Source: Bacteroidaceae bacterium
GTDB taxonomy: Bacteria > Bacteroidota > Bacteroidia > Bacteroidales > Barnesiellaceae_A
Assembly (NCBI GenBank): GCA_017532725.1
Contig: JAFXIZ010000059.1
Coordinates: 1 to 59,376, forward strand
Length of the DNA stretch: 59,376 nt
Reading direction: 5' to 3'
Program-made: the position numbers and the translations under genes
Part shown: one piece after another, positions 33,124 through 41,566 of the stretch
Position numbering within the stretch: position 1 is the first letter of the stretch
Layout: each line of letters starts with the position of its first letter
Notes under the pieces: model-generated
What the model was told of the DNA's origin: nothing
The model's database searches: none
Seen by the model: only the letters and a program-made list of their open reading frames with translations

Positions 33124-33128
33124 CGTTG

Positions 33129-33211
33129 TGGGCGAAGATGGATTCGAACCACCGAAGGTAAAAACCAGCAGATTTACAGTCTGCCCCATTTGGCCACTCT
33201 GGTATTCGCCC
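33129..33211 (-). tRNA. tRNA-Tyr (GTA)
   Basis: Reverse complement GGGCGAATACCAGAGTGGCCAAATGGGGCAGACTGTAAATCTGCTGGTTTTTACCTTCGGTGGTTCGAATCCATCTTCGCCCA: anticodon GTA, long variable arm, TTCGAAT T-loop, CCA not encoded. TATCTTTG promoter at 33222-33229. Confidence 0.97.
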
Positions 33212-34778: not shown

Positions 34779-35219
34779 CTATTTTCGCAATCGGGCAAGT
34801 ACATAGATAAGTACAAGATTACCCAACAGCATAGCGACAACAGCCCACCACATCCAAGCAGGCACGACCTCAACCCTCTCGCCGGGCATAGGCACAAGGT
34901 AGGGAACAGAGTCGATGGTATGCACTTCGCGCCATTGCAATCGGATGCTGTCACGACGGGGCAACACCGAGAGCGAATGCGACAACACGCCTTGCGCCAC
35001 CGATGCCACGCTATAGGCACGCTCGGCACACAAGACACTCACCGTATCGGCCGTCTTATTTCGCTGCAATTCGCCCTCCGTAACCACCTCTATTACAGTA
35101 TCGCGCGTTACTATCATCTCGCTGCGATGCGACTGTGTGGGTACATACACAGTGCGTGTACACGACAACAAAACAGGCACAACCACCACAGCAAGCAGCA
35201 ACAACATCACACGCCTCAT
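34779..35219 (-). CDS. Lipoprotein with C-terminal TM helix (unimolecular-spanin-like)
   Basis: Lipobox LLSC at residue 20; beta-rich middle with DT/DS repeats; C-terminal WMWWAVVAMLLGNLVLIYVL-ARLRK. ATGA overlap with the endolysin gene. Confidence 0.65.
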   Translation of the reverse strand: MRRVMLLLLAVVVVPVLLSCTRTVYVPTQSHRSEMIVTRDTVIEVVTEGELQRNKTADTVSVLCAERAYSVASVAQGVLSHSLSVLPRRDSIRLQWREVHTIDSVPYLVPMPGERVEVVPAWMWWAVVAMLLGNLVLIYVLARLRK

Positions 35220-35623
35220 TGTCGCAACACCTCCCTCCTATTCTTGCCATTGCGTTTGTAACTGACGTGTATCCACGCAGGCCCCACATCCGAGCCTTGT
35301 TCCCATATCAATTGGTCGAAAGGGAGTTCGAGCAGCACCTCATAGAGCCTCTTATTCATCGCCGGCGAGCCAACACGCACATCGGCAGCCTCGCCCAGCA
35401 GATGCTGGCTATCGCTTACGCCACCCACAGCCTTGTTCAGTTGCTGCGAACGATAACCACTATTGACGCGTATAGGCATCCCTATGCGCTCTCGTGCAGG
35501 GTCGAGTACATTCATCACCAACGCCTTCAAGTTTTCAGCAGCCTCGGCATCGGGTTTATTGCCGATGTGCAATATTCTTGCCACAGCACTGTTGGTCATC
35601 TCGGCCATTGTAAAGTACTTCAT
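35216..35623 (-). CDS. Peptidase M15-type Zn peptidoglycan hydrolase (endolysin-like)
   Basis: KYFT..E, SGYRS..LN.AVGG, SQHLLGEAAD (SxHxxGxAxD), FDQLIWE and WIHVSY motifs; no signal peptide. Confidence 0.88.
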   Translation of the reverse strand: MKYFTMAEMTNSAVARILHIGNKPDAEAAENLKALVMNVLDPARERIGMPIRVNSGYRSQQLNKAVGGVSDSQHLLGEAADVRVGSPAMNKRLYEVLLELPFDQLIWEQGSDVGPAWIHVSYKRNGKNRREVLRQ

Positions 35624-35856
35624 ACACCATCACCCCCTCTCTCATTGCGTGGCACACCATTATACCTACGATAACTATAATCCACACCAAACAACGCTCC
35701 AGCAAACGTCACCACCTCACCAAAAGCCACCAAAACACTACTGTGAATTTCGCCCTCGGGAGCAACCCAAAAGCCCGAAAAGACCAGCACCAAACCGGCT
35801 ATACACATAATGCAGGCAATCCACAACTGCACCGATAATTTATTCATTTTAGACAT
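35620..35856 (-). CDS. Small two-TM membrane protein, putative holin
   Basis: Two hydrophobic helices around P.GEIHSSVL..FGE..TFAGALFG.DY, a charged C-tail and an ATGA overlap with the endolysin. Start uncertain (35856 or 35847). Confidence 0.6.
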   Translation of the reverse strand: MSKMNKLSVQLWIACIMCIAGLVLVFSGFWVAPEGEIHSSVLVAFGEVVTFAGALFGVDYSYRRYNGVPRNERGGDGV

Positions 35857-36015
35857 ATCTTTTTTTTGCACAAAGATGCAATCGCATCTATAAAAATGAA
35901 TGCGATAAAACGAATAGATACATTTGTTACATCACTACTTTATTTTCCTAACAGATATATCGGCCGATAATACAAATTCATACTTCGACAACAAAGTGTA
36001 CCCTAATAGTTGTTA

Positions 36016-36210: not shown

Positions 36211-36420
36211 ATGCACATAGGACAACTTATCAAACAACAAGTCGAAAAACAAGGCGTAACCGTATCGTGGTTTGCCCGACAATTACCTTGCAGTCGCACC
36301 AATATCTACAAGATATTCGATCGCGCCACAATAGACACGAGTGTACTTATGCGCATTTCCATCATCTTGAAATACGATTTCTTCAAGCATTATAGCGAAG
36401 ACATCAAGGACAAGATGTAG
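36211..36420 (+). CDS. XRE-family HTH transcriptional regulator
   Basis: HIGQLIK...V.WFA.QL.CSRTNIYKIF...IDT..L.RIS..L.YDFF, a common small Bacteroidales HTH pattern. Confidence 0.85.
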   Translation: MHIGQLIKQQVEKQGVTVSWFARQLPCSRTNIYKIFDRATIDTSVLMRISIILKYDFFKHYSEDIKDKM

Positions 36421-36464: not shown

Positions 36465-36539
36465 TCGACACGGGCAAAATTATACTATATAATATTACTT
36501 TTGCAAACTAACACAATATTTAAACTAATAACAAATACT

Positions 36540-37325
36540 ATGGGCCTTTTCACAAACAAAGAGAGCGAACATTCAATTGAGAAAAATCAATTTGAACAAA
36601 CTATAGAGAACATCAAAGCCGAGTGTGAGAAGTTGATACAAGAAAACAAGGCCAAAGATGAAGAAATCCTCAACCTGAAGAAAACCATCGAGGCATTGAA
36701 AGGACAAGCAGTACCACAAGAAAACACACCCGAGCAACCTATTGTAGCCGAGGAGAAACCCGAAACTCCCGTAGTTGGCACAGACTATGCTCCGGCACTT
36801 GAAGCCATCAACGCCTCAATCAAGGAGTTGACAGCCAAGTCGGACGAACTGAAAACAATGATAGGCTATCGCGATATACAAGATGAGAACGTAAAAGCAA
36901 TGCACAAAGAGTTGGAGAAATTCCGTGGCAACTTCTACGCCAAGATTACCCAACCCTACTTGATGGCAATGCTCGACCTGCACAAACGTTTCTTCGAAAC
37001 CTACGCACACTTCGACCACCTCGACAACAGCGAGGCCGATATGAGCCAACTCTACAGCAACTTAATGGAGCAATTCAAGAGTGCCGTAGATGCTTTGGAA
37101 AATCGCATATACAACGACTTCGGTGTAGAATATTACCTACCTCAAGAGGGTGATGATTTCAACCCCAAACAACATCAGGCATTTGAAGTTATCACAACAG
37201 GTATTGAATCATACGATAAGAAAATAGCAAAAGTTATATACGGAGGCTTCCGCGATATAGACACCGAAAGAATACTTCGCCCCGCACGCATTGCTTGCTA
37301 TAAATATCAATTAATTATAGAATAA
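36540..37325 (+). CDS. GrpE-like nucleotide exchange factor with N-terminal coiled coil
   Basis: C-terminal GDDFNPKQHQA...KIAKVIYGGF....RILRPARI resembles the GrpE beta-domain; directly upstream of an Hsp70 gene. Confidence 0.7.
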   Translation: MGLFTNKESEHSIEKNQFEQTIENIKAECEKLIQENKAKDEEILNLKKTIEALKGQAVPQENTPEQPIVAEEKPETPVVGTDYAPALEAINASIKELTAKSDELKTMIGYRDIQDENVKAMHKELEKFRGNFYAKITQPYLMAMLDLHKRFFETYAHFDHLDNSEADMSQLYSNLMEQFKSAVDALENRIYNDFGVEYYLPQEGDDFNPKQHQAFEVITTGIESYDKKIAKVIYGGFRDIDTERILRPARIACYKYQLIIE

Positions 37326-37349
37326 CAAATAATAAAAACATATATAACT

Positions 37350-38948
37350 ATGGCAAATGACAAAAGCAGAGCCGTTTACGGCATCGACTTGGGTACAACA
37401 TACAGTTGTATCTCACAAGTGGACAAATACGACCAAGCAGTCGTACTTCGCAACTTCGAAGGTGATGCAACAACACCTTCGGTAGTATATTTCGAATCAG
37501 AGTCAAATATGATAGTGGGTAAAGAGGCGAAGAATATGCTTCCCGTTGAGCCCGAAAAAACCGTTTCGTTCATCAAACGTCAGATTGGTAACGATGAGGC
37601 TTTCGACAAGAGCAAAAACACAACTCCGTTCCACTGCGACCCCGTTGAAATTTCGGCTCTTATCTTGAAAAAACTTGTACAAGATGCCAACGACTTGGGC
37701 GACAACCCCGAGCCTATCAAAGACGTCGTTATTACTTGCCCCGCATACTTCGGTAACAAAGAGCGCTTGCAAACCAAGCAAGCCGGTATCAGTGCCGGTC
37801 TTAACGTATTGGGTATCATCAACGAGCCTACAGCAGCCGCTATCTCATACGGTATGAAGGTTGATGAGCGTCGCACTATCTTGGTGTATGACCTTGGTGG
37901 TGGTACTTTCGACGTAACAATCATCGTGGTAAACGGTGGTGCTATCAAGGTTGTGGCTACCGGTGGTGACCACCACTTGGGTGGTGTCGATTGGGATACC
38001 GAGTTGGCTAAATATGTACTCAACACATTCAATTCACAAAACGGTACAGCATACGACTTTGACACACTCTCGGCCAACGCTCGTTTCGACCTCTTGCTCA
38101 ACGCCGAAAACTGGAAAAAGAACCTCTCGGCTCGTCAAACTGCCAAAGTTAACTTCTCATACGAAGGCAAGTCGGTTAACTTCGACCTTCCTCGCGAAAC
38201 ATTCAACGCTATCACCGAGGATCGTTTGAACGAAACAATCGATGCAACACGCAAGATTATCGACATCGCCAAGGAAAAAGGTTACGAAACAATCGACGAA
38301 ATCATCCTCGTGGGTGGTAGTAGCCGTATGCCCCAAATCAAGGATCGCGTAGAGGCTGAGTTTGGCTTGCCTACTCGCTTGAACGACCCCGACGAGTGTG
38401 TTGCCAAGGGTGCTGCCATCTATGCAATGAACGAGGCTTACGCACAAGCCGTTAAAGGTTGGGAAGAGGGTACTATAGATGAAGCCCCCGCACCTCTTAC
38501 CGACGGCAAGAAACGTACTCGCATCGTGAACGTAACAAGTAAGACTTACGGCCTCGGATTGGTTGACAATATGGTAGGTAACCTTATCTTTGCCAACTCT
38601 ACACTCCCCGTATCACGCACTCGTTCATTTGAAACCGTACAAGACGGACAGACAGGTGTTACACTACCTATCTACGAGAGCGACTTTACCGATGAGGAGA
38701 AAGACCAAACCGTAGAGGATCGCTTCTGTAACTTGGCAACCGAAGATATCTCGGTATTGAAAATCACCGGAAATCACCCCAAAGGTACCGAAATCAAGGT
38801 TACATTCAGCATCGACAATGAGGGTATCCTCAGTGTAAATGCTACACGCGATACCGACGTGATAGACTTCAAACTCAAGATTGCCGGTGTGAAAGACGAG
38901 GAAGAGTTGAAGAAGTCGCAAGAATTTATTGCGAACGCAACTGTATAA
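37350..38948 (+). CDS. Atypical Hsp70-family protein (532 aa, no helical lid)
   Basis: GIDLGTTYS, TPSVV, VITCPAYF, INEPTAAA, YDLGGGTFD, LGGVDWD, LVGGSSRMP and PDECVAKGAA motifs. The substrate-binding beta domain ends IKVTFSIDNEGILSV and the protein stops ~35 aa later. Confidence 0.92.
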   Translation: MANDKSRAVYGIDLGTTYSCISQVDKYDQAVVLRNFEGDATTPSVVYFESESNMIVGKEAKNMLPVEPEKTVSFIKRQIGNDEAFDKSKNTTPFHCDPVEISALILKKLVQDANDLGDNPEPIKDVVITCPAYFGNKERLQTKQAGISAGLNVLGIINEPTAAAISYGMKVDERRTILVYDLGGGTFDVTIIVVNGGAIKVVATGGDHHLGGVDWDTELAKYVLNTFNSQNGTAYDFDTLSANARFDLLLNAENWKKNLSARQTAKVNFSYEGKSVNFDLPRETFNAITEDRLNETIDATRKIIDIAKEKGYETIDEIILVGGSSRMPQIKDRVEAEFGLPTRLNDPDECVAKGAAIYAMNEAYAQAVKGWEEGTIDEAPAPLTDGKKRTRIVNVTSKTYGLGLVDNMVGNLIFANSTLPVSRTRSFETVQDGQTGVTLPIYESDFTDEEKDQTVEDRFCNLATEDISVLKITGNHPKGTEIKVTFSIDNEGILSVNATRDTDVIDFKLKIAGVKDEEELKKSQEFIANATV

Positions 38949-38985
38949 CACGTCAGTAAAACACCTTTTTTAAAATACTATAACC

Positions 38986-39017
38986 GAGGTTGTGTCACCC
39001 GACACAACCTCATTTTT
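38986..39017 (+). terminator. Intrinsic terminator-like hairpin between hsp70 and the downstream gene
   Basis: GAGGTTGTGTC-ACCC-GACACAACCTC (perfect 11-bp stem) plus ATTTTT. Confidence 0.7.
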
Positions 39018-39028
39018 AGCAAAAGTAG

Positions 39029-41566
39029 ATGGATAAAACTCTTCTCAAACAGAAAATAGCCGAATGGGGAAAAGCGTGCGAATACTTTGCAAGCCCCGAC
39101 ATACAAAAACAACTCGCAGACGAAGAAAAAAGCGCAATCAAATTCTTGGTGGAGTTTTGGAAGAACAACGAATTTGACAAGGCCACTTGCGAGAAACACA
39201 TCAACACACTCAAAGAATGTGACAAACTACACTCTTCAAATCGCGATATCATTGAGAAGAGTAAAAACTTCAGAGGTATAGCCGCAACATTCTATACCAA
39301 AGATGCTCAAACATTCCACGAATTTCGCACCGAGATGGGCTGGACACGCCAAACGCCTACTCCCGTACCCACTCCTACGCCTACGCCTACACCCACCCCT
39401 ACGCCTCAGCACAACGAAGCGATGATGATGATTAACGTAGAGAAGTGGAGCAAGGCTATACAATACCTGCGCAGTGAGGAGATTACGCCACTGCTTGATG
39501 TTAATGAATTTACTGCCATAGAGCAATTGGCCGATATGTGGCGACGCCCTTCATACCAACCGACTATGAAGGAGGAGGCTGCCGAAATGATTAAGGTGCT
39601 GGTCGATTCACACAAACTGCACTCATCCAATCGTGAGATTATAGAGAAAAGCAAAAGTCTGTGTGGTGTTGCTCGCAAGGTATATGACAACAAAGAGACT
39701 TTCGACGCCTTCAAGAAGGCCATTACACAATATTACAAGGAGAATAAGCCTCCTAAAAAAGAGCCTGTTCCCGATCCCAAGAAGGAGACACCCAAGAAGA
39801 CTCCTACTCCTACCAAGCAAGATAAGGAACTGATATTGCAAGATGTTGTTTTTGCCAACACCACTTACAACAACGACATTATCAAAGACTTTGGCAAGAC
39901 ACTCTTTACCGATACTCAATATATCACCCCTCGCATAACTGTATCGAGCGAATACTACGGCACCGAAACCATTGAAGTAAAACTCCGTTACCCCAATGGC
40001 GAAACAGTACAATACGAAGATGAGGTAGTATTCAAAGGTAAAGGCAATTACATTATATCGGGTTGGGGAAGCAAGACCGGCTCGTCGTACGCATCATACA
40101 GTTATGTAGAGTACACATTCATCTGCCGCGGTAAGAAGTTGTGGCAAGGCCGGGTAACCATCAAGCAAGACCCCAAGAAATTGCCTTACCCCAACATTGT
40201 CGATATCAAGTTTGGAGCAACCGACTATGACGGTAATATTGTGGTAGAACACGGCAATCCCATTCCTACCGGTATCCCCTACCTCAGTCCTATGATTGTG
40301 GTCGATAACAATTTCCGTGGCAGTATAACCCTCGACATCGAATACAAATATGAGAAACGAGGCACGAATAAAACAAATTGCGAAGTGTATATACAAGGCC
40401 CCGGTGAATACAGTCTGTCCGGTTGGGGTAGAAAAGATTGTGGCTTCTATACCGAGCCCGAAACTATCAAATGTACTATCAGTTACGATGGCAAAACGCT
40501 ATATAGCAAGAGCGTAAAGATAGGCAAAGGTGGCAGCCCCCGAAGAGAGACTCGACGACGCAACAGCGATGGCAAAGAATCGGGCTGGACACTATTTAAG
40601 AACAAGATAGAGGATGTAGGCGACTGGTTTGAGGATAAGACCGAAGATCCCGAGTCGGTTACCTCAATCATCTCGGCACTTATCTTTATACTATACGTTA
40701 TATTAGTTATAGGTATATGGATAAGCGAAGGTTTCTGGAGCGCACTATTAGTAGGTGGTATAGGATTCTTCGTAACGGGATTTGTAATCTTAGCCAGCAA
40801 CTTTGTCACAAAGGTAATTCTACACATCCTACGCTTTGTATTCCTCAACGTATGGACATTCCTTATTGCAGTGATAATATTCCTTGCACAAATAATTATT
40901 CCTGCACTCACCTCATTCGGTTCGGGCTTGTTCAGCAATATTGGCGATATGTTTGAGAAGAAGAATAAGACCGAGATGGTCGTTCCCGAAACCCTGCCAT
41001 ACATCTGTACAGCCAAGTCGGGTGTAAACGTACGCCAGTCGCCCTCATCATCGGCAGCCCAAGTGGGTGCTTTGCTTTACGGACAACAGATTGAGGTCTA
41101 TGAAACAAATGGCGACTTTGCAAGAATAAAGTTCGACCACAGCAATGGCAACGATGCTTGGGTAAGCAGCAAATACATCCAAATCGATGAAGATGCTTTT
41201 TTCGCGCAAAACGAGCAACGAAAAGGCGTGAAAACCCTATCGAGTGGCGTGCAATATGAGGTGATAAAAAAGGGTAAAGGCGACAAGCCCCAAGTAAGCG
41301 ACATCGTAAAATGCAACTACACGATGACACTTGTTGACGGCACATTTCTCGATGGCACAACCAGCAGTTCAGGTCCTATCTCTTTTGGCGTAGATAAAGT
41401 AATAGCAGGCTGGAGCGATGCGCTAACCAATATGAAAGAAGGCGCCCAATGGAAGTTATACATACCCTCGCACCTCGCATTTGGCGAGAAAGGTAATAAT
41501 ATGCTTGCGCCCAACACGCCTCTTGTCTGCGAGGTAGAATTGGTGGAAATTGAAGAAAACATATAA
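39029..41566 (+). CDS. Multidomain membrane protein: 2 helical repeats, 2 SGWG beta repeats, ~3 TM helices, SH3b, FKBP-type PPIase
   Basis: KLHSSNR.IIEKSK twice; SGWG twice; hydrophobic block; VNVRQSPS...G.L..G...V...G.FA.I.....AWVS..YI (SH3b); SGVQYEV...GW..AL..M..G....LYIP.HLAFG (FKBP). Confidence 0.8.
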   Translation: MDKTLLKQKIAEWGKACEYFASPDIQKQLADEEKSAIKFLVEFWKNNEFDKATCEKHINTLKECDKLHSSNRDIIEKSKNFRGIAATFYTKDAQTFHEFRTEMGWTRQTPTPVPTPTPTPTPTPTPQHNEAMMMINVEKWSKAIQYLRSEEITPLLDVNEFTAIEQLADMWRRPSYQPTMKEEAAEMIKVLVDSHKLHSSNREIIEKSKSLCGVARKVYDNKETFDAFKKAITQYYKENKPPKKEPVPDPKKETPKKTPTPTKQDKELILQDVVFANTTYNNDIIKDFGKTLFTDTQYITPRITVSSEYYGTETIEVKLRYPNGETVQYEDEVVFKGKGNYIISGWGSKTGSSYASYSYVEYTFICRGKKLWQGRVTIKQDPKKLPYPNIVDIKFGATDYDGNIVVEHGNPIPTGIPYLSPMIVVDNNFRGSITLDIEYKYEKRGTNKTNCEVYIQGPGEYSLSGWGRKDCGFYTEPETIKCTISYDGKTLYSKSVKIGKGGSPRRETRRRNSDGKESGWTLFKNKIEDVGDWFEDKTEDPESVTSIISALIFILYVILVIGIWISEGFWSALLVGGIGFFVTGFVILASNFVTKVILHILRFVFLNVWTFLIAVIIFLAQIIIPALTSFGSGLFSNIGDMFEKKNKTEMVVPETLPYICTAKSGVNVRQSPSSSAAQVGALLYGQQIEVYETNGDFARIKFDHSNGNDAWVSSKYIQIDEDAFFAQNEQRKGVKTLSSGVQYEVIKKGKGDKPQVSDIVKCNYTMTLVDGTFLDGTTSSSGPISFGVDKVIAGWSDALTNMKEGAQWKLYIPSHLAFGEKGNNMLAPNTPLVCEVELVEIEENI
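39352..39406 (+). repeat. Pro-Thr low-complexity linker repeat
   Basis: Degenerate ACN-CCN hexamers encoding TPTPVPTPTPTPTPTPTP. Confidence 0.9.

Follow-up and report, generated by a model that had tools for sequence, protein, structure and literature searches.

The window, that is, the whole 59,376-nucleotide stretch of DNA analysed here, is an entire contig (C34) of a 2.13-Mb draft genome (85 contigs; 92.65% complete). Its minus strand carries three open reading frames, all intact and coupled by an ATGA overlap at each of the two junctions, in agreement with the initial annotation: a holin-like gene (35620-35856; 78 amino acids, or 75 from a second in-frame ATG at 35847), an M15 zinc peptidase gene encoding a predicted endolysin (35216-35623; 135 amino acids) and a gene for a predicted unimolecular spanin (34779-35219; 146 amino acids). 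A holin-like gene and a peptidoglycan hydrolase gene are found together outside a prophage, as in type 10 secretion systems.

Hydropathy analysis confirmed the two transmembrane stretches previously noticed in the first product, which had no match among the curated holin families of Pfam, PHROGs and NCBIfam and matched PF20712 weakly, below the family cut-off. Its position before endolysin-type genes suggests that it is probably a holin: as in phage lysis cassettes, a small membrane protein precedes the endolysin. The protein starts with M-S-K-M (35847-35856), and a second methionine follows a lysine or arginine within seven residues in 10 of the 13 other holin orthologues; the dual start of the lambda holin/antiholin may offer a parallel. 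The second product matches PF08291 (61 bits; cut-off 23.2), the endolysin family phrog_894 (E 5e-34) and PDB entry 1lbu (E 8e-11). Both M15 motifs reported earlier are intact (S72-x-H74-x-x-G77-x-A79-x-D81 and W117-x-H119), with all seven residues invariant in 18 of 18 aligned proteins, and the N-terminus is not hydrophobic, as expected from the reported absence of a signal peptide. An M15_3 domain with His-Asp-His zinc ligands (H74, D81 and H119) and no export signal is the profile of an M15 endolysin.

The third product had been described as a lipoprotein, which holds for its lipobox (LLSC, with the cysteine, C20, invariant in 18 of 18 aligned sequences) but overlooked a C-terminal transmembrane helix. 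In the structural model (pLDDT 75.5 and pTM 0.29, read for secondary structure only), residues 32-103 form strands and residues 121-145 the helix, which hydropathy and the alignment also support. A lipobox cysteine, a ß-rich periplasmic part and a C-terminal transmembrane helix make up the layout of a unimolecular spanin (u-spanin), and we predict the protein to be a candidate host-encoded member of this class; a fold search with the model returned nothing at E 0.001 or better. The u-spanin of phage T1, gp11, as described in the available text of PMC6139136, likewise combines a lipoprotein signal, a ß-rich periplasmic part and a C-terminal transmembrane helix and is the last gene of its cassette, although no sequence or fold match to it was found and the spanin here is encoded by the host. 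In addition, the present protein has one non-conserved periplasmic cysteine (C64), whereas the 58 u-spanins covered in that text have none.

Promoter-like elements upstream of the holin-like gene

A near-consensus -7 box (CATCTTTG, 35871-35878, minus strand) had been noted upstream of the cassette. The box is present, but since the genome contains 153 copies, it is of little significance by itself. Over 35870-35879 (minus strand) it reads as a non-canonical -7-like element, GCATCTTTGT, with a C where the Bacteroidota consensus, TAnnTTTG, has a T; among ORF-proximal AT-rich boxes in the genome, 18 are of the CA type and 368 of the TA type (slightly different patterns were counted for the two). 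A second promoter-like box, TATCGCA (35901-35907, minus strand), lies further upstream and is common to the dispersed virion loci described below, while an A-tract (35860-35867, minus strand), typical of Bacteroidota translation starts and seen in the orthologues too, immediately precedes the start codon. CAnnTTTG is kept in all 14 orthologous holin promoters, exactly 21 nt behind the second box, which is TATCGCA in ten, TATTGCA in three and AATCGCA in one, with the 21-nt spacer in all.

Contigs from two RNA libraries of one study cover parts of the cassette (X2, 34785-35395; X3, 35349-35625), in a sample set where comEC and other genes are also patchily covered and DNA carry-over is possible; libraries X1, X4 and X5 of the same study gave the cassette no cover. 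A further run (X6, library type unstated) spans it at about 99% identity.

Conservation and context of the cassette

The named GTDB relatives of this genome are uncultured gut Bacteroidales, most of them from ruminants, labelled Bacteroidaceae, Barnesiella sp. or Porphyromonadaceae. The M15 gene is present in 14 of 14 genomes of the genus (60-72% identity), as are the holin-like orthologues (67-76%), and the gene order is the same throughout, one copy ending at a contig edge. When 47 genomes from other families were queried with the M15 protein, two matched, weakly. A TPR gene directly follows the cassette in 10 of the 14 genomes and lies 6.6 kb away in two more, and GrpE-Hsp70-FKBP genes stand upstream in 10 of 14. 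In the window, the latter form an operon (36501-41566) that encodes a GrpE-like protein, a paralogue of Hsp70 and a membrane protein of the SH3/FKBP type; past the TPR gene and ribH, at a distance of 1.6 kb downstream from the cassette, there is a tRNA-Tyr gene (33128-33211). No direct or att-like repeats bounding the cassette were evident in the window. Two neighbours were considered as partners and set aside: a divergent XRE gene (36211-36420) as regulator, which adjoins the cassette in no more than 2 of the 14 genomes, and the GrpE-Hsp70-FKBP operon as cargo, adjacent in 10 of 14 and so not in all.

Median dN/dS values were 0.13 for the holin, 0.14 for the M15 gene and 0.31 for the spanin, compared with 0.05-0.10 for six flanking host genes (cassette medians from the 17-30 of 91 pairs with dS < 2). 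True prophages of the genus have separate M15 copies at 51-54% identity. A quick tree of 76 M15 proteins separates these prophage copies, and also the Parabacteroides modules discussed below, from the 14 host copies, which cluster together among viral sequences with an SH-aLRT support of 87 (not starred). The proposal that the cassette is domesticated and not debris is borne out by its presence across the genus, its housekeeping context, dN/dS well below 1, its own clade and a tree that mostly matches that of the hosts. Strain specificity, neutral evolution and a confinement of close homologues to prophages had been named as grounds for doubt; what we found is a cassette in every genome of the genus, dN/dS of 0.13-0.31 and close homologues outside prophages. 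These data support a real, conserved, host-controlled and domesticated cassette.

Dispersed virion loci in the same genome

A search of the genome with phage open reading frames located virion-type genes at five other loci on four other contigs, amid housekeeping genes; with the cassette, they amount to 14.9 kb. They comprise scaffold-like, major capsid and adaptor-like genes (C49:18207-21218); a portal gene (C47:19531-21426); an 82-residue gene followed by the large terminase, with two divergent ejection-like genes encoding 184 and 718 residues (C52:15250-20628); an 854-residue gene, probably for a tail 'nozzle' (C80:698-3262); and a pair of genes for a 149-residue, HTH-like protein and a 165-residue protein (C80:13361-14307). 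In the window itself, 1356 open reading frames from phage loci matched the M15 gene alone and a later search the cassette genes only; it contains no capsid, portal or terminase gene, the absence of a capsid gene having been stated earlier.

The major capsid protein is of the SU10 type (PF17236, E 2e-48), the portal is P22-like (PF16510, E 1e-45) and the large terminase matches phrog_2 (E 3e-22), with conserved motifs that we take to be of the ATPase and nuclease types. An SU10_adaptor match was obtained for 1 of 12 relatives of the adaptor, and a prophage homologue of the 184-residue protein gave a weak match to T7 gp14. The remaining labels are assigned by position: those of the putative ejection genes from related prophages, and that of the putative nozzle from prophage homologues located between portal and internal-virion genes. 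The 854-residue protein has 4216 relatives at E 0.001 or better; it gave no PDB match, and 34 of its distant relatives no relevant Pfam match.

Each of the 14 genomes encodes the capsid (66-82% identity), portal (67-79%), terminase (65-87%), 854-residue (44-58%) and 149-residue (47-79%) proteins, and the scaffold, adaptor, 82-, 184- and 165-residue genes were seen in all 14 fetched loci; these counts cover every virion gene except that of 718 residues and use terminase copy L376 of G005, its copy L371 (an apparent duplicate of the one in G001) being left out. None contains internal stops, and dN/dS ranges from 0.09 to 0.31, with most values near 0.1 (medians over the 2-54 of 91 pairs with dS < 2); for capsid, portal, terminase, 854- and 149-residue genes it is 0.09-0.10, the value for the 854-residue gene coming from 2 of 91 pairs. 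Trees from concatenated lysis, virion and host genes have 8-9 of 11 splits in common, and the lysis and virion trees each contain one well-supported split (0.94 and 0.99) that is missing from the host tree. Three features by which gene transfer agents (GTAs) are recognized are thus found here: intact, host-kept phage head, portal and terminase genes; scattered, vertically inherited loci under purifying selection, all six with conserved host flanks; and no replication or integration genes at the loci, whose surrounding open reading frames are of housekeeping type (judged largely by eye).

We also considered whether these genes could be the remains of an old prophage, or pieces of one that the assembly had split. 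All of them are phage-derived, the draft consists of 85 contigs and real prophage pieces are present, namely a separate remnant with an integrase on contig C81. This explanation is nevertheless very improbable, given the intact frames, the conserved housekeeping flanks and a dN/dS that lies far under 1 between species whose synonymous sites are close to saturation; moreover, in G011 the loci lie at 364, 401, 596 and 785 kb of a single 1.29-Mb contig.

A promoter-like motif common to lysis and virion genes

The motif defined by the 14 holin promoters, TATCGCA (or a one-base variant), exactly 21 nt and then NCAnnTTTG, was fixed from these promoters alone, before the virion genes were found. It occurs at 22 sites genome-wide and lies within 100 nt of three of the six virion units (portal, scaffold-capsid and ejection), against a chance expectation of 0.003 units (P 4e-9), or 0.03 if all sites are taken to be intergenic (P 4e-6). 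Variants precede the terminase unit and the 854-residue gene. Across the genus, all 14 genomes have the motif before the scaffold gene, 11 before the ejection gene and 9 before the terminase unit; it also precedes the portal gene in 12 of the 13 genomes for which upstream DNA was available. A scan placed an exact TATCGCA box before the 854-residue gene in 11 of 14. At the paralogous prophage loci the motif precedes none of the scaffold, portal, ejection and terminase genes. Relaxed patterns used later were tuned on virion sites and are not independent evidence, and the motif also stands before a few unrelated genes. We infer that it serves a dedicated activator or sigma factor.

Several individual sites deserve mention. 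Between the terminase unit and the ejection-like genes, two motif copies overlap back to back (G000:C52:18287-18340; G000 being the present genome), and both are found in 9 of the 14 genomes. In three genomes (G000:C72:19095, minus strand; L384; L400) the motif lies about 500 nt before an XRE-type gene with no long open reading frame between, possibly reflecting a small RNA or a feedback link. A 108-residue, nuclease-like open reading frame (by eye; G000:C66:2411-2787) in a mobile-looking island has a perfect copy; it was rejected as a member of the system, being strain-specific (1 of 14 genomes).

A candidate switch gene

The 149-residue protein consists of two similar halves and yields a confident, all-helical model (pLDDT 88), for which fold searches returned only HTH-like folds (Z 6.6 or less) and no clear match; in the Atlas it falls into unnamed clusters only. 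Two palindromes of the GGTA-N3/4-TACC type overlap its canonical promoter (G000:C80:14381-14415; L412-L425) in all 13 genomes with upstream DNA. Because of this canonical promoter with twin palindromes, the gene fits the part of a putative master switch; alternatively, it may encode a small terminase, and its phage homologues stand where the small terminase usually does. Similar palindrome boxes occur near capsid promoters in sister families.

Sister families

Of 401 Bacteroidales genomes searched with the capsid protein, 30 gave a match. Orthologues at 59-69% identity occur in five other families (f28, f63, f80, f104 and f133) and at 44-58% in a sixth (f21), and the named carriers are Coprobacter fastidiosus, C. 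tertius, Barnesiella viscericola and B. propionica. All five sister-family genomes that were searched encode portal and terminase, and four the 854-residue protein. In six genomes the scaffold-capsid operon lies beside the same fumarate-hydratase-like gene (by eye), four of the five capsid promoters viewed carry the motif or a close variant, and fibre-like genes are kept.

At the end of the capsid operon stand a PF05105 holin gene and an M15 or M15-like gene (G305 and G116), or holin-like, endolysin-like and lipoprotein genes (G040); the homologue of the 149-residue gene is followed by a u-spanin-like gene in G305 and G316. Since holin and endolysin genes close the capsid operon in these families, lysis genes belong to the system. 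They also differ between families, because the M15 family of the cassette was not found in four of the five sister-family genomes; in G353 and G145, the 20 kb fetched contained no lysis genes. The genus studied here likely replaced its original lysis genes with another phage cassette, which would have been placed under the same motif. In family f21 (L458, L459, L460 and L461) the set is reduced: G033 and G170 have a capsid gene by itself, and G281 and G371 have scaffold, capsid, adaptor and a short portal gene, followed in G371 by a homologue of the window's spanin; the 854-residue gene was not found in G371.

A proposed particle and its release

Because the promoter motif is common to capsid, portal and packaging genes, the cassette is probably tied to the particle. 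We propose, with a probability of about 0.7, that it is the release module of a dispersed, podovirus-like and GTA-like particle that would package host DNA, known here from its genes alone. The original reading of a domesticated lysis or release module therefore stands, but it missed the likely cargo, namely the scattered genes for head and packaging that come under the same motif. In the model, a repressor bound at the twin GGTA-N3/4-TACC sites would hold down the 149-residue, HTH-like gene; once released, its product, or another activator, would switch on the weak TATCGCA-N21-TTTG promoters. Heads would then assemble and be filled by the terminase with chromosome fragments, after which the holin would open the inner membrane, the M15 enzyme would cut peptidoglycan cross-links and the u-spanin would fuse the inner and outer membranes, so that a subpopulation of cells bursts and releases particles. 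At somewhat better than even odds, we further suggest an ancient, independently evolved GTA of gut Bacteroidales, spread over about seven families including Coprobacter and Barnesiella: it would descend from a podovirus-like ancestor, be arranged in single-gene loci under one dedicated motif and a phage-derived switch gene, and have had its lysis module swapped between lineages and re-wired to the motif.

Adsorption is left unexplained by this model, because the search for tail-fibre-like genes succeeded in only 3 of the 14 genomes (one subclade) and not in the present one, where a divergent gene could escape detection. The absence of a detectable fibre gene from 11 of 14 genomes would suit a particle that does not deliver DNA but serves as a decoy, kills in the manner of PBSX, stores DNA or interferes with the assembly of related podoviruses; prophages whose capsid, portal and terminase are 39-53% identical do occur in the same genus, and PBSX, according to the accessible portion of PMC7667829, packages host DNA without transferring it. 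We consider such a particle unlikely, given that the terminase, 854-residue and 184-residue ejection-like genes are under purifying selection in all 14 genomes and that fibre-like genes are kept in the sister families and in one subclade.

The closest analogue of the proposed DNA-packaging particle is FpGTA of Faecalibacterium prausnitzii, which, in the portion of PMC12946183 available to us, is likewise found in a gut commensal, podovirus-like, built from terminase, portal, scaffold and capsid genes, equipped with a holin and an endolysin at a separate locus and near-ubiquitous in its genus. The likeness is not a claim of homology: FpGTA has a Gram-positive host, two operons and demonstrated particles with about 9 kb of DNA, whereas the present system has a Gram-negative Bacteroidales host, a spanin-like gene and six loci. 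GTAs of the RcGTA/CcGTA type (PMC11841831, in part) are also domesticated phages inherited vertically, with several loci of one or a few genes and lysis apart from the head, and the same source describes a multi-locus layout with separate lysis genes as typical of GTAs; the system here differs in ancestor (SU10-type capsid, P22-like portal) and phylum, its head genes are themselves split up and no tail fibre was found in most members. The type 10 cassettes ChiWXYZ of Serratia and YenLC of Yersinia, as presented in the consulted sections of PMC10847048, similarly join holin, peptidoglycan peptidase and spanin among host genes outside prophages and are co-regulated with their cargo; here, by contrast, the spanin has the one-piece layout and not that of Rz/Rz1, and the cargo would be a virus-like particle instead of enzymes or toxins.

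In the main texts covered (supplementary tables and most subscription papers were outside the scope), we found no description of a GTA or of a cassette of this sort in Bacteroidota, and the available parts of 10.64898/2026.07.08.737213, PMC7667829, PMC13371074 and 10.64898/2026.06.25.734096 mention no Bacteroidota GTA. According to the accessible portion of PMC12946183, Bacteroidales belong to the gut groups in which genes are transferred at the highest rates; for Bacteroides/Bacteroidales, the 2026 survey of gut DNA packed in capsids describes lateral transduction and not GTAs, which are assigned mainly to Gram-positive families. A multi-locus particle with its own motif, a candidate switch and a lysis module is directly testable in cultured Coprobacter fastidiosus and Barnesiella viscericola. 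More generally, a common promoter can link a lysis cassette that seems to be an orphan to its cargo, and a candidate host-encoded unimolecular spanin is added to those described.

Viral relatives and phage-free modules of Parabacteroides

Among IMG/VR sequences, 181 holin relatives were confirmed and 80 kept; they often immediately precede genes of the amidase, GH19 or M15 type (most labels assigned by eye). Within the loci fetched by holin and M15 alignments, a u-spanin-like gene lies near the holin in at least 39 of the 66 with room for one, near-copies included. Bacteroidales temperate phages combine the same three families, in the order holin, M15 and lipoprotein with C-terminal transmembrane helix in L107; the best M15 relatives from the 80 retained loci show 49-58% identity and stand amid virion genes, whereas the host copies form their own clade.

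Parabacteroides and relatives (L211-L278, for example L212:5868-8117 and L227:5874-8077) have several phage-free modules per genome, each with a 155-residue gene without known function, an HU-like gene (TIGR01201), the holin family, an M15 or amidase gene and a lipoprotein with a C-terminal transmembrane helix; an M15 gene was found nearby in 47 of 64 anchored loci. Such modules contradict the statement, in the accessible part of PMC5499826, that HU-HIG genes are almost wholly without conserved operon partners.

That holin-M15-lipoprotein modules beside HU-like genes are so common here, that type 10 secretion systems are themselves phage-free holin/endolysin/spanin clusters (PMC10847048, in part) and that the window holds no virion gene would all agree with a stand-alone type 10 secretion or explosive-lysis cassette, releasing proteins, DNA or vesicles and having no tie to a capsid. 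This is quite unlikely: the virion loci have the motif in common with the cassette much more often than chance would allow, and across the genus it is conserved at these loci; the M15 proteins of Parabacteroides fall into a clade of their own; and none of the neighbours that might serve as cargo is retained in all 14 genomes. Release of the dispersed, GTA-like particle remains the reading we prefer.

Two further observations concern M15 genes elsewhere. Open reading frames of about 280 residues occur in Parabacteroides (L251:7209-8060, and in L259, L260, L265, L267, L271 and L277); in L251 a lipobox-like segment follows the M15 domain in the same frame, which may reflect a fusion of endolysin and spanin or an internal start. 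Finally, a microvirus-like element with an M15 peptidase (L038:9618-15370) is integrated in G033, as judged by eye.
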